NCBI GenBank assembly: GCA_963811105.1
Contig: CAWEPZ010000011.1
Coordinates: 1,024,001-1,088,000, forward strand
DNA length: 64,000 nt
Direction of reading: 5' to 3'
From: Candidatus Bathyarchaeota archaeon
Lineage (GTDB): Archaea > Thermoproteota > Bathyarchaeia > Bathyarchaeales > Bathycorpusculaceae
In this document: positions 14,329-37,998 of the stretch, piece by piece
How positions within the stretch are numbered: the first letter of the stretch is position 1
Layout: each line of letters begins with the position of its first letter
Translations under genes and position numbers: made by a program
Notes under the pieces: model-generated
Database searches by the model: none
What the model was told of the DNA's origin: nothing
The model's input: only the letters and a program-made list of their open reading frames with translations

Positions 14329-15516
14329 TTGAGCAAAAGCTCGAGAACCAAAAAAGTTTTAAATGAAAATATTTCCAAAACGACTGCTCCTGCAGTTACA
14401 TCAAAAGACCAAAAAATCTGTATTCCCATTCCAAATATTGAAACCCAAAAAGTCTGTTTAAATTTACCAAAAATAGATGTAGAAACAGAAAAAGTCTGTT
14501 TTGATTTACCTAAAATACCATCAAAAGGCTGCGATTGCCCTCCGCCCGTGATGCGCTGCCGACCCAGAGAAGAAAAAGTTACGACCCGCGCCGTGATACC
14601 AAAATCAGAAATTGCTTCAAGCATCGGCGGGCCTCTCTCTATTGCTGAGATAGAAATTGGGGAAATTTCGATTCCAGATCTTAGATTGAAAAATTTTAGC
14701 GGGAACTTCAAATACGATTCATGTAAAGCAAAAAACGTAGAGTTAGAAATCACCTTATCCATTAGCACAACTTTTTCAGGGAACATTGATCTGCCCTGGC
14801 CGCTCTGCTGGTCTGACTTTTGCTATGGCGTATCAGGCGGAGTGAATTTTGATTCCTACGTTGAGAAACATTCTTTAGGAGATGTTGTATTTGGCGCAGG
14901 CCAATTTTCAATGGTTTCTACCTCAACTACTATTGGTCCATTCTCAATGACACCTAACCCAATAAGAGAAACTAAAATCGACCAAGTTACCGCCGACAAT
15001 ATCCAAATGAAATGCACAAGTATTCCCCTTGAGACTCCTCTGGGAATCAATATCGGACTCTGCCTACCCATACCAAATCCCATGGGTCCAAACGACATCG
15101 CAACGGATCAAACAACTATCGATGAAATGGATTCAACCGGAATATCAAGCCCACAAGCATCAATGAAAAACATAAGTGCCTTAAACGTGACAATTCCATC
15201 AGTCACTACCCAAGCATTCGAGGCGCAATCTAACACCGCATTGCCAATATCAACGTCCAAAAAAATGTATGGATCAGGAGTAACCCTAAACGGCGACGCA
15301 GATAAAGCTCATATTGACGGCAACTTAACTCTTAATATTTCCAAAATAATAATGAGGGTCAAAGGCGGCTTGGAATTTACAAACCTAAACGGTTCAGTTG
15401 CAACCGATTCCGCAATTGCAGATAAACTTGACTTAAGCTTGGTCTTAAAAGGAATCAAAATCAAGGGACTAAATCTATGTGGAATGAAAATTCCAGAGAT
15501 AGAGGTGGTAATGTAG
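14329..15516 (+). CDS. Uncharacterised beta-strand-rich, Cys-containing protein with N-terminal repeats
   Basis: 395-aa ORF in the operon; alternating hydrophobic strands; DLPWP motif. Confidence 0.75.
   Translation: MSKSSRTKKVLNENISKTTAPAVTSKDQKICIPIPNIETQKVCLNLPKIDVETEKVCFDLPKIPSKGCDCPPPVMRCRPREEKVTTRAVIPKSEIASSIGGPLSIAEIEIGEISIPDLRLKNFSGNFKYDSCKAKNVELEITLSISTTFSGNIDLPWPLCWSDFCYGVSGGVNFDSYVEKHSLGDVVFGAGQFSMVSTSTTIGPFSMTPNPIRETKIDQVTADNIQMKCTSIPLETPLGINIGLCLPIPNPMGPNDIATDQTTIDEMDSTGISSPQASMKNISALNVTIPSVTTQAFEAQSNTALPISTSKKMYGSGVTLNGDADKAHIDGNLTLNISKIIMRVKGGLEFTNLNGSVATDSAIADKLDLSLVLKGIKIKGLNLCGMKIPEIEVVM
14407..14520 (+). repeat. Three imperfect in-frame repeats (QKICIPIPNI / QKVCLNLPKI / EKVCFDLPKI)
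   Basis: DNA-level duplication of AAAAAGTCTGTTT..ATTTACC.AAAATA. Confidence 0.75.
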
Positions 15517-15801
15517 ATGAGCAGAAGTCTAAGTAGCAGTAAACCTAAGCTCAAGATTGAGGAAATCGCAAAAAGAGAAAGAATAATGAAATCTGTAATG
15601 GACCAGAAAAGAACTGGAAAAATTGATATAAAAGCCACATTCGATTTGATACATCTTAGCGTCTACCCGCTTCTAGAGAACCGAGAGATAGTAGAAGACG
15701 ACATGAAGAAACTCAAAACGACACTTGACGAAGCCGCCTGCCAAATCTGTGAGATAATCGAGAAATCAAAAAGAAAGACTTCAAGCAATACTCCACAATA
15801 G
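15517..15801 (+). CDS. Hypothetical helical protein
   Basis: ATG directly after previous TAG; GAGGTGG upstream. Confidence 0.7.
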   Translation: MSRSLSSSKPKLKIEEIAKRERIMKSVMDQKRTGKIDIKATFDLIHLSVYPLLENREIVEDDMKKLKTTLDEAACQICEIIEKSKRKTSSNTPQ

Positions 15802-15814
15802 CTTAAAGAAACTC

Positions 15815-15845
15815 GCGGCAACTTCTTGCCGTGTCATTTTCTTTT
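15815..15845 (+). terminator. Hairpin plus T-rich tract closing the isoprenoid cluster
   Basis: GCGGCAA-CTTC-TTGCCGT followed by GTCATTTTCTTTT. Confidence 0.5.
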
Positions 15846-16042
15846 GCTCCCAAGAATAGGCCAATTCTATTACCAAAATGACGATGGATCGTTTTAACGC
15901 TAAATTTGAGGGGTTTTCAAAATGCTTCTTGAAACAGGTTTGAGTCTTCAGTTTTAAATTGTCTTAAATGGAACACAAGTAGTGCTATTTGTAACAGAAA
16001 AGTCACAATATTTAAGAATTAGATTCCACAATCCCATATTTA

Positions 16043-16264
16043 CAGGCTGGGGAGCACGCTTTAAGATGTGCGTTGAGGCACGGAGCGTATCAATTAAAAC
16101 AGCTGAAAATTGGTATGCGACTAAGACCTTACCTCCACGGGCTGGCCATAACAAGCGTTGCCGCGAGGCTATGAGCTATATGGTCAAAGCGGTTAAAGAC
16201 CATGTGGTGATTATGACATTGCCTCGATGGACCGTGGACGCATTTAAGGCTTAGACTCAGCCTG
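16043..16264 (+). ncRNA. Candidate structured non-coding RNA of unknown class
   Basis: 5'/3' closing stem, two side hairpins and a long interrupted helix; many G-U pairs on the + strand; TTTAAG box at 16011-16016. Confidence 0.6.
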
Positions 16265-16354
16265 CTCTCACTAATTTATAACGAATTTCCAGTCCTTGCA
16301 AGCAAGCCCTAAATCATTTTTCTTTCATAAAAATAGGGATAAAATGAGTTGAGT

Positions 16355-16798
16355 TTATTCTTGTATTATTTCGTAGGATGTTGTGATTTCTGCTGTCTTC
16401 TTTAGCATTGCTCCAACTGAACAATATTTGTAGTGTGAGAGTTGAATTGCTCTTTCAACAGCTTCTTTGCTAATGTTTTTTCCTTTGACGATGTACTTTA
16501 TGTGGATTTTGGTGAAAACTTCCGGCGGCTCCTCGCTCCTTTCAGCTTCAGTCTCAACACTGTAGCCTGTTATGTTTTGTCTTTTCTTTTTCAGAATGGT
16601 AACGACATCAAAACTGGTGCATCCAGCTAAAGAGGCTAAGACTGTTTCCATAGGTGTCGGAGCAGAGTCTTCTCCCCCATATTTTGAAGGCGCATCGAAA
16701 TTTACCGTCAGGCCTCTCTCAGTTTTTGCTTCAAAACGAAAGTTCCCTTTCCAATTCAAAACAATCTTCTTTTTGTTATCAGACATACCTTGTACCAT
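16355..16798 (-). CDS. OsmC/YhfA family protein
   Basis: PTPMETVLASLAGC...KYCSV. Confidence 0.92.
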   Translation of the reverse strand: MVQGMSDNKKKIVLNWKGNFRFEAKTERGLTVNFDAPSKYGGEDSAPTPMETVLASLAGCTSFDVVTILKKKRQNITGYSVETEAERSEEPPEVFTKIHIKYIVKGKNISKEAVERAIQLSHYKYCSVGAMLKKTAEITTSYEIIQE

Positions 16799-17071
16799 GA
16801 AATTTGGCGCTAAAAAATCTTGCTAAGTTAAAAACTATAGATAAACGCGAGAGACATAATCAATTTGACTCAACCAAAGAAAGAACCCAATTGAGCTTGT
16901 TTAATTCTTGACTTGTCCTCGGCTTTTTTGAGTTTCAGATAACAACCAAAGTTTCTCAAGCAAGTACAAATAGTTCTCAGAGGTATAACCGTGAAAGTGA
17001 TAATTAAAGAAAACATAAACCTTCTTCACGGACTTACTCACTTCCTGAACTTTTGGAACCCAATACAGTCT

Positions 17072-37006: not shown

Positions 37007-37687
37007 CTACTGCTCCTTGGCTTCAGGCGGTAGGTAGTCGTAGATGACACCTTTCTGCATCGCTCTTTTCAAGTAAGCCTCAGGGTCAATTTCTTGAACC
37101 TTTGTACGATCAACATCTATTATGTAGATTTCTTGTATGCGAGCATTTCGGATTTCTTCAAAGGTCACAGGTGGCTTTTGGTAGTATGCGTCACAGAGCT
37201 TTTTTATATAAATTATTTCTTCGTCAGTTCGATTTCTAGGCGGCTTAGCTAACGCACGTGGAAAAGGTAGAGTATAATGTGGCGGCACGCCTAAAGCGAA
37301 TTTTCCTGCGAAGCTGCTGTACCGTATTATTTTGCTTGCCAATCTGGCAGTCGTGTAAGTTAAAGGTGCCAAAGCATTTTCTGGAGGAATAAAACCCGTC
37401 TCTATTTCAACAATTAAATTTCCAAAACCTTTTATGGCATATACATCACATGTCAAAAGCTCATTTAAGGTATATTCAAGCTGAACTTCGCAGCCCTTTT
37501 GAATAAGATATTTCGCACAAACAAGCTCCATAACTGAATGATTAATTTTTACAACGTTTTCTCTTTGAAGATTTGTCAGCCGATCTTTAAGGACGTTAAG
37601 TTTTTTTTCTACGTCATTTCCAGAATCCTTTGTCAGCCTATTTAAGAGGGTTGTTAAGTCTTGTCCGAATTTTTGCCTGTTACTCAT
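37007..37687 (-). CDS. Hypothetical protein, PD-(D/E)xK-like
   Basis: HSVMELV, CDVYA, VEIETG. Confidence 0.75.
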   Translation of the reverse strand: MSNRQKFGQDLTTLLNRLTKDSGNDVEKKLNVLKDRLTNLQRENVVKINHSVMELVCAKYLIQKGCEVQLEYTLNELLTCDVYAIKGFGNLIVEIETGFIPPENALAPLTYTTARLASKIIRYSSFAGKFALGVPPHYTLPFPRALAKPPRNRTDEEIIYIKKLCDAYYQKPPVTFEEIRNARIQEIYIIDVDRTKVQEIDPEAYLKRAMQKGVIYDYLPPEAKEQ

Positions 37688-37998
37688 TTGTTGCTTCCCT
37701 GCCGATTGGCTTGCTACTTTCTTTAACCTATTCGGCTTTTGAAATATATAAAGCCAAAAAATGTTTGTGCCAAAACCTCAACCAAATTATTAAGCTTCTC
37801 AATTGAAATAAGTGATTGCTGGTTTATTCAGACCTGACCGGATAGAAAATAAAAACAGAAAAAAATCCATTCATGATTTGCTCGCAGTGCCAAATGCAAA
37901 AACTTGCACAAGAAGAAATGTGACGACAATTTTCATTCTATTGCTTGCTGTTACTAAAGGGAAAAACTTCCTGAAAGTCAACACGCCTTTTTTTAGGG

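Follow-up and report, generated by a model that had tools for sequence, protein, structure and literature searches.

We studied a structured element on the + strand, at positions 16042-16265, of a 64,000-nt stretch of DNA from Candidatus Bathyarchaeota archaeon (assembly GCA_963811105.1, contig CAWEPZ010000011.1, positions 1,024,001 to 1,088,000 of the forward strand; this whole stretch is called the window and its first letter is position 1). Very probably the element is a stand-alone gene whose transcript is processed at a motif of the bulge-helix-bulge (BHB) type and whose sole product is a circular non-coding RNA. The gene and its structure, the sites of cutting and joining, the genes of the enzymes and, in RNA libraries, the product as a circle were all found (see below). 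A preliminary description made from the sequence alone had proposed an unannotated, structured non-coding RNA of the + strand, new to Rfam, and this proposal held up against every refutation test run. Excision at the BHB with circularisation, the repeated modules and the pseudoknots are features beyond that description.

BHB motif, cut sites and circular product

The two ends of the element form a canonical hBHBh' motif: the 4-bp helix H (GAGC 16052-55 / GCUU 16249-52) lies between two 3-nt bulges on opposite strands (ACG 16056-58 and AGA 16253-55), the outer helix is the 9-bp helix P1, and the inner helix h' begins with CUU 16059-61 / AAG 16246-48, its first three pairs being kept. The definition applied (PMC7714728) asks for a 4-bp helix, two 3-nt bulges, and helices of 2 bp or more on both the outer and the inner side. 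Helix H was paired in 99.5% of cells in an alignment of 52 sequences (A3) and in 100% in one of 24 sequences (A4). Its first pair (columns 11-335) was GU in 24 sequences, GC in 13 and AU in 12, and never A-C. Both cuts are symmetric, each falling after the second base of its 3-nt bulge. The parts of the precursor are as follows:

16042-16057, + strand: 5' leader, removed; contains the P1 5' strand, GAGC 16052-55, A16056 and C16057; cut between C16057 and G16058
16058-16254, + strand: mature circle of 197 nt, G16254 ligated to G16058, as found in RNA contigs
16249-16255, + strand: 3' half of the BHB, GCUU 16249-52 followed by the bulge A16253, G16254, A16255; cut between G16254 and A16255
16255-16265, + strand: 3' trailer, removed; holds the P1 3' strand, 16256-64

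A search of sequencing runs with positions 15300-17000 returned 21 runs from 17 studies, 16 of the runs being recorded as RNA; each run held a fraction of 0.05-0.17 of the words of this stretch, of which the element makes up 0.12-0.13. Four metatranscriptome runs, each of a different study (two of soil, one of sediment and one of freshwater), had their contigs aligned to the stretch. In all four, coverage was limited to the four bins between 16041 and 16268 and the contigs were confined to 16058-16254, with zero coverage of either flanking gene, and no contig of the four runs covered the leader or the trailer; the presence of the element in RNA libraries without its flanks agrees with the preliminary proposal of an RNA gene. 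All four also carried a joint that leads from 16254 back to 16058, a step back of 197, with zero positional ambiguity. Contigs were exactly 227 nt long in three of the four runs, which is 197 + 30 and which we infer to be the length expected for a 197-nt circle assembled with 31-mers. The loose contig ends of relatives read ...AGGGCUUAG and GCUUUAAG... over the junction, with the same UUAG/GCUUU (the slash marks the joint). The joint of 16254 to 16058 and the coverage limited to 16058-16254 therefore indicate that the product is a 197-nt circle.

The genome encodes candidates for both enzymatic steps. The EndA family PF01974 was matched twice (95.1 and 69.7 bits) by paralogues of 188 and 186 aa, and the RtcB family PF01139 once (588.6 bits). 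The genes of the two EndA paralogues lie at C9:305455 and C3:58245. A splicing endonuclease of the (alpha-beta)2 type is typical of TACK archaea and has a broader specificity, and the pieces that it excises are circular (PMC7714728). We propose that such a heteromeric TACK-type endonuclease, made of the two EndA paralogues, would cut two nt into each bulge, and that RtcB would link G16254 with G16058, which leaves the short leader and trailer as by-products; EndA and RtcB are thus the presumed enzymes acting on this RNA.

The register of helix P2 that covaries after ligation lies one base off the inner helix of the precursor, and the junction lies within a 4-nt loop, UUAG (16251-54), that caps P2 in the circle. 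Folded as a circle, the 197-mer reached -62.6 kcal/mol (z = -3.35, 200 shuffles). After ligation the circle would refold, with the junction in the UUAG loop on P2 and with two bent paralogous modules (see below). An alternative reading of the internal loop between P1 and P2 as a kink-turn (K-turn) was dropped after the cut sites revealed the BHB.

Secondary structure, repeated modules and covariation

The + strand of 16040-16268 folded at -83.7 kcal/mol (z = -4.06; none of 200 dinucleotide shuffles as good) and the - strand at only -68.6 kcal/mol (z = -2.52), a fold far beyond chance and in line with the preliminary claim of a + strand RNA. Conservation had sharp edges in an alignment of 14 sequences, starting at 16042/43 and ending at 16264/65, and RNAalifold on this alignment gave 58 pairs, 19 of them with compensatory changes. 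The structure with two modules, pseudoknots included, has 71 pairs, 60 of which showed double changes, with 91.6% of cells paired; the corresponding values for the one-module form were 44 pairs, 34 and 92.2%, all from alignments fitted to the nested helices of the model, which favours those helices, the pseudoknot columns lying outside the model. None of 500 shuffles was as good as the 71-pair structure, and sliding the partner by 1-3 columns dropped pairing to 31-41%. The covariation that had been looked for among homologues was thus present in both forms. The structural features of the element are listed below:

16043-51 / 16256-64, + strand: P1, outer helix; 98% of cells paired, 8 of 9 pairs with double changes
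16058-64 (GCUUUAA) / 16244-50 (UUAAGGC), + strand: P2; 92.8% paired, 4 of 7 pairs with double changes
16071-16144, + strand: module 1, with stems A1 and B1, bulge, loop and pseudoknot PK1; supported by covariation
16071-83 / 16127-39, + strand: stem A1
16119-26, + strand: bulge of module 1, GACUAAGA, 8 nt, facing A16084
16085-95 / 16108-18, + strand: stem B1, 11 bp; 11 of 11 pairs with double changes
16096-107, + strand: loop of module 1
16100-03 with 16141-44, + strand: PK1; pair 67-115 was AU 38, GU 9 and GC 5 times
16145-16160, + strand: linker between the modules, variable and gappy in alignments; may form a small hairpin
16161-16234, + strand: module 2, a paralogue of module 1; supported by covariation
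16161-73 / 16217-29, + strand: stem A2, which includes CGAGGC 16164-69 / GCCTCG 16221-26
16175-85 / 16198-208, + strand: stem B2; 11 of 11 pairs with double changes
16186-97, + strand: loop of module 2
16209-16, + strand: bulge of module 2, GAUUAUGA, 8 nt
16190-93 with 16231-34, + strand: pseudoknot PK2; pair 189-312 was GC 33 and AU 10 times

Both modules follow one plan: stem A, a lone A opposite a conserved 8-nt bulge G-N-Y-N-A-A-G-A, the 11-bp stem B, an A-rich loop of 12-13 nt, and a short G-rich segment directly 3' of the foot of stem A. The unpaired bases of the module are highly conserved. Further pseudoknot pairs changed in the same manner: PK2 pair 192-310 was UA 18, CG 17 and UG 8 times, the pseudoknot pair 188-313 was CG 37, AU 5, UA 1 and UG 1, and in the short form (see below) pair 64-109 was GC 14 and AU 6. 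Each pseudoknot was counted as 4 bp, since about half of the sequences do not form the fifth pair. The hairpin is about 23 bp long, and its loop can touch the foot only if the helix folds back at the bulge; from this geometry the hairpin of each module would be bent at its 8-nt bulge, bringing the loop to the foot. A K-turn reading of the same bulge was rejected, as covariation of the flanking pairs, judged by eye, puts the G-A out of register.

Much of the pairing drawn in the preliminary description reappears here. Its closing stem is P1, its 11-bp hairpin is B1, CGAGGC/GCCTCG forms part of the covarying stem A2, and the pairing of CTATATGGTC (16176-85) with GACCATGTGG (16198-207) is stem B2. 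Four other proposals were not borne out. The hairpin GCACG 16054-58 / TGTGC 16067-71 overlaps bases 16052-57, which belong to the BHB and are lost on processing. For the long-arm helix of CTAAG+CCTTA 16121-31 with 16245-54, we found instead that 16244-50 pairs with 16058-64 (P2) and 16127-39 with 16071-83 (A1). The helix TCCACGG 16134-40 / CCGTGGA 16232-38 is feasible in this genome alone and is not preserved in relatives. Finally, the loops of the two modules, thought to kiss each other, pair with their own 3' segments instead (16100-03/16141-44 and 16190-93/16231-34).

Comparison with known RNAs, coding sequences and repeats

No Rfam 15 family matched at the gathering score anywhere in the 64-kb window. 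At E <= 10 over 15800-16450 there were four weak matches, all in the flanks, and the element itself was unmatched, as its proposed novelty to Rfam had implied. The preliminary description had noted that the topology loosely recalls signal recognition particle (SRP) RNA; the likeness stands for the topology and fails for the identity, since the SRP RNA model (RF01857) was unmatched in the element and the genome has its own SRP RNA at C2:292030-292344 (158.5 bits). The RNase P RNA model (RF00373) was likewise unmatched in the element and found its own gene at C9:174896-175196 (176.6 bits), and an ordinary 5S rRNA (73.7 bits) is present elsewhere in the genome; both identities were rejected. C/D box small RNAs (sRNAs) are a known class of circular RNA in archaea, with box C (RUGAUGA), box D (CUGA) and a K-turn near their ends. 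Reading 16058-16254 showed no TGATGA, there was no Rfam match, and this candidate too was discarded. ARAGORN found no tRNA in the window; on the whole genome it reported 43 tRNA genes, six of them with introns whose borders seem imprecise, one being an 81-nt intron in a tRNA-Trp gene (C9:413674-413846).

The open reading frame (ORF) 15982-16254 overlaps the element. It had no Pfam match, and in 13 close homologues its frame is disrupted by indels of 1 and 2 nt and by stop codons; the nearest homologue (89% identity) had a 1-nt indel and five in-frame stops. We therefore rejected a coding reading, the frame being lost in relatives and no Pfam family being matched, and the conservation of a coding type that might have spoken against the RNA was absent.

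The element is single-copy in the 3.49-Mb assembly: the other eight blastn matches were at most 36 nt long, with E >= 0.1, and a regular-expression scan of the genome for the BHB frame found the real frame sequence at this locus only. With one full-length copy and neither repeats nor target-site duplications around it, the element was not taken as a miniature inverted-repeat transposable element (MITE) or a remnant of an insertion sequence (IS), and the copy number asked for by the preliminary description is one. A riboswitch or cis-acting leader was also set aside, because the downstream gene is convergent here and is convergent or different in most of 68 loci. Full-text searches of the literature, supplements aside, turned up no account of an RNA like this from Bathyarchaeia.

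Homologues and distribution

By blastn against 60 related genomes, near full-length matches were found at 15 places in 14 genomes. For more distant relatives two covariance models were used, R1 for the long form and R2 for the short form, and an absence means not found with these models, because divergent interiors escape them. R1 found the RNA in 33 of 41 genomes of the genus, in 74 of 151 genomes of the order sample and in 25 of 151 of the class sample. With R2, 8 of the 151 phylum-sample genomes were positive, all eight within the class, and none of the 131 genomes outside it gave a match. With these models, the RNA family was found in the class Bathyarchaeia only.

The homologues fall into two size classes: about 225-230 nt, the form present here, and about 133-137 nt, which is without the whole 3' domain. 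The number of modules in relatives is one, two (as here) or three. Since only the short form was found outside the order of the window, the long form probably derives, to judge by the sequences, from a later duplication of the module. One genome, G013, has three modules inside a single frame (G013:C12:34746-35056, L050), and in three genomes of the genus (G001, G015 and G029) the RNA gene is present in two or three distinct copies.

Locus, promoter and transcription unit

In the ORF reading of the window the RNA gene sits in an intergenic gap of 550 nt. Upstream lie two abutting + strand ORFs, 14329-15516 and 15517-15801 (395 and 94 aa), which had no Pfam or NCBIfam matches and are not kept beside the RNA gene in relatives; downstream lies an OsmC-like gene (16355-16798, - strand), convergent to the RNA gene. 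GC content was 0.45-0.48 within the element and 0.33-0.38 in the flanks, bearing out the preliminary remark that the element is GC-richer than its surroundings. The transcription unit comprises:

16042-16265, + strand: the RNA gene as a whole, a stand-alone gene with a putative precursor of about 230 nt
15990-16017, + strand: promoter region read from the sequence, with a near-palindrome, a stretch like a transcription factor B recognition element (BRE) and a TATA box
16272-16279, + strand: weak T-rich stretch TAATTTAT, a candidate terminator

The TATA box AATATTTAAGA occupies 16007-16017, about 26-31 nt ahead of the first base of the terminal stem. It contains the TTTAAG box (16011-16016) of the preliminary description, and of 63 homologous loci nearly all have a comparable BRE/TATA-like box about 24-38 nt ahead of P1's first base. 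In most of these loci T-runs follow P1 after about 5-25 nt (or a few bases); the run is weak in this genome. We place the putative start and end of transcription by these signals. The BRE/TATA promoter would thus drive a precursor of about 230 nt whose two ends pair as P1.

A near-palindrome, TGTAAC-N6-GTCACA (15990-16007), overlaps the BRE-like stretch just 5' of the TATA box, and a better one, TGTGAC-N6-GTCACA, occupies the equivalent position in close relatives. It may be a transcription-factor site controlling the RNA gene.

The P220 gene, a neighbour of the RNA gene in many relatives

The gene called P220 encodes a candidate partner of the RNA. In the window it is located as follows:

37007-37687, - strand: P220 gene, encoding a 226-aa protein with a PD-(D/E)xK nuclease-like fold, 21 kb from the RNA gene

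P220 had no sequence match in Pfam, NCBIfam or the PDB. Its relatives at E <= 1e-5 number more than 5,231, and every one that bears a name is a "hypothetical protein" of Bathyarchaeia, with one exception, labelled Nitrososphaerota. Mean column identity across orders was 56%, and His, Glu, Asp, Glu-x-Glu and Lys are invariant. The AlphaFold model had a predicted local distance difference test score (pLDDT) of 91.1 and a predicted template modelling score (pTM) of 0.87, and its residues 49-203 matched PD-(D/E)xK folds: 3dnx (Z 10.7), XisH 2okf (Z 9.9), AF1548 1y88 (Z 9.3) and NucS 2vld (Z 7.9). The best Foldseek E-value, 1.3e-3, was to a CdiA-CT. From this model P220 is an uncharacterised protein with a predicted nuclease-like fold.

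P220 (210-230 aa) was the divergent neighbour of the RNA gene, 57-390 nt upstream, in 20 of 68 RNA loci (11/49 + 9/19), belonging to families f11, f12, f23, f25 and f27. The other flank of the RNA loci differs between lineages; in f11 it is an ATP-dependent DNA ligase. We then drew 14 regions upstream of P220 from genomes where R1 had found no RNA and ran R2 on them with filters off. Seven of the 14 matched (E 3e-7 to 0.016; families f1, f14, f20, f22 and f27), all divergent to P220 at 96-297 nt, and in the other seven the BHB frame was absent upstream of P220. The seven matches share P1 and the BHB frame (GGGAGCAYGCU ... GGCUUAGAC) but differ inside, having rod-like interiors of 133-163 nt (loci L111, L112, L114, L115, L117, L120 and L121). 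By its sequence, the BHB frame resembles a cassette that can be reused for circle production. In total the RNA gene stands back-to-back with P220 in at least nine families.

In the class sample, P220 was present in 23 of the 25 RNA-positive genomes, the two without it being 85% and 68% complete, and in 51 of the 126 genomes without detected RNA. Within the genus 32 genomes had both, one (56% complete) the RNA only, three P220 only and five neither, and here the two genes are not adjacent, lying tens to hundreds of kb apart. Fisher p-values for the co-occurrence were small, but related genomes are not independent.

Upstream of P220 in the window lies TTTGTGCCAAAAC (37762-37776). In those loci that have RNA and P220 side by side, this motif stands before the RNA gene's TATA box; here it is not followed by an RNA. 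By this sequence likeness it may be a relic of an ancestral RNA-P220 arrangement.

Possible function and alternative explanations

A closed RNA, a compact repeated module with invariant unpaired bases, its presence in one to three copies, an exchangeable interior and a conserved nuclease-fold neighbour together lead us to suggest, tentatively, that the circle is a long-lived, exonuclease-proof scaffold or regulator that binds protein, with P220 as the best candidate partner. Each repeated module (one, two or three) would then bind one copy of the partner. A more specific version, which we hold to be doubtful, is that the circle and P220 make up an archaeal RNA-protein system in which the circle is the RNA subunit of the nuclease, as guide, activator or brake; the frame would give biogenesis and the lineage-specific interior specificity.

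Several points weigh against this picture, some against the circle and more against its link with P220. The evidence for the circle consists of assembled contigs, which are blind to strand, ends and abundance. The cut after the second base of the bulge is a position that we take to be canonical, by comparison with tRNA splicing (37/38) and from the symmetry of the two cuts. A tandem duplication of the DNA in some strain could formally supply the same joint, but both cuts lie precisely within the predicted bulges, and the contigs lack the flanks. P220 is more widely distributed than the RNA (74/151 vs 25/151 class genomes), and family f24 has P220 in all 27 genomes and the RNA in one of 27; R2 found no RNA in five f24 genomes with P220, an empty result that is weakly informative. 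In the window the two genes are 21 kb apart, and neither the BHB frame nor the RNA was found beside P220. Related genomes are not independent samples, so that one event or a few may lie behind the co-occurrence, and the back-to-back order could be inherited synteny alone. Interiors that differ between families would also be odd for one conserved binding partner.

Other explanations are less probable. The circle might be a by-product or a transient intermediate, the functional species being a re-linearised RNA or the ligated leader and trailer, much as circular pre-16S and pre-23S rRNAs are intermediates that are later opened (PMC12918454), and contigs are blind to coexisting linear forms. We find this improbable, as conservation and covariation lie wholly inside the circle, the flanks past P1 are unconserved and P1 varies freely while pairing; no contig of the four runs covers the leader or trailer, and the register in which P2 covaries arises only after the BHB has been resolved. 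An RNA half of a toxin-antitoxin or defence-like pair is an analogy of similarly slim chance: as in type III ToxIN, whose repeat RNA lies upstream of, and in one transcript with, the endoribonuclease toxin that processes it, the modules would bind the P220 nuclease and hold it inactive. One to three tandem modules, a gene of the PD-(D/E)xK fold adjoining in at least nine families, and a confident P220 model (pLDDT 91) that resembles nucleases including a CdiA-CT toxin would suit such a pair. However, the RNA and P220 are single-copy and apparently vertical, P220 at 56% identity is unlike fast-moving defence genes, the f24 genomes nearly all have P220 without detected RNA, and the two genes are divergent and not co-transcribed, the RNA being processed at a BHB.

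The conserved unpaired bases in a compact fold, the tandem modules and the covarying pseudoknots would also fit a ligand sensor in which each pseudoknotted module is an aptamer, arranged in tandem as in glycine riboswitches and acting in trans or as a buffer. Such a sensor is very unlikely, since there is no expression platform, most of the 68 loci have a convergent or unrelated gene downstream, the RNA is an excised circle, and in other families unrelated rods take the place of its interior. Restoration of SRP RNA by BHB circularisation in Thermoproteus, where that RNA is permuted (PMC4731332), is a precedent for a circularly permuted or otherwise disguised housekeeping RNA. Here this is highly improbable: ordinary SRP, RNase P and 5S RNAs are present, the linear sequence when scanned had no partial Rfam match at E <= 10, the distribution is patchy (25/151 class genomes) and the number of modules varies. 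Lastly, the two or three copies in G001, G015 and G029 and the likeness of rod-like circular RNAs to viroid-like agents might point to a mobile or selfish element, be it a MITE, an IS remnant or a viroid-like replicon that became integrated; but the RNA is single-copy here with its own promoter and a host-type BHB, flanking repeats were not found, the neighbourhood is kept across orders and the structure covaries over the whole class, so that we give this explanation hardly any weight.

Relation to known systems and significance

The BHB signal, the symmetric cuts and the circular product are the same as in archaeal tRNA introns and in the tRNA intronic circular RNAs (tricRNAs) of metazoans (PMC7714728, PMC4536317). 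Unlike tRNA introns, the RNA described here has no host tRNA. Its "exons" amount to no more than a leader of 16 nt and a trailer of 11 nt, a promoter of its own precedes it, and conservation and covariation belong to the very piece that is excised. Circular pre-16S/23S and 23S rRNAs likewise have paired ends that hold a BHB and are excised as circles (PMC12918454, PMC7038931, PMC7714728; the first of these, as far as its available text goes, deals with rRNA circles only), whereas here the product is a 197-nt non-rRNA that occurs in part of a single class. In Thermoproteus the permuted SRP RNA is also a BHB-cleaved and circularised RNA that is neither tRNA nor rRNA (PMC4731332); unlike the gene of that known, universal RNA, the gene studied here is not permuted, no known family matches its product and SRP RNA is encoded separately. 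The BHB intron in the 5' untranslated region (UTR) of HVO_1309 and surveys by circular RNA sequencing have provided further EndA substrates outside tRNA and rRNA that are found as circles (PMC7714728; PMC3326292). These are parts of mRNAs or sporadic, whereas we describe a gene that is dedicated and conserved and whose RNA has a complex covarying fold.

A different comparison is with modular RNAs that titrate proteins. CsrB/RsmZ and ToxI (of type III toxin-antitoxin systems) are such RNAs, with varying numbers of repeats. Compared from description only, the RNA family resembles them in its varying number of modules (one, two or three) and in a possible partner gene nearby, and differs from them in being circular and archaeal.

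BHB cleavage with RtcB ligation is a known route by which tRNAs and rRNAs mature, along with one permuted SRP RNA and a handful of segments from UTRs. What differs here is that the BHB machinery appears to serve a dedicated gene whose sole conserved product is the excised circle, which is present in soil, sediment and freshwater metatranscriptomes. The BHB frame motif suggests a simple search for further "intron-only" genes in archaeal genomes. The circle would be a natural, genetically encoded, stable circular RNA scaffold and is of relevance to the engineering of BHB-based circular RNA expression. The Bathyarchaeia, abundant and uncultured, gain with it a lineage-specific structured RNA, and a testable link to an uncharacterised nuclease-fold family of more than 5,000 members.

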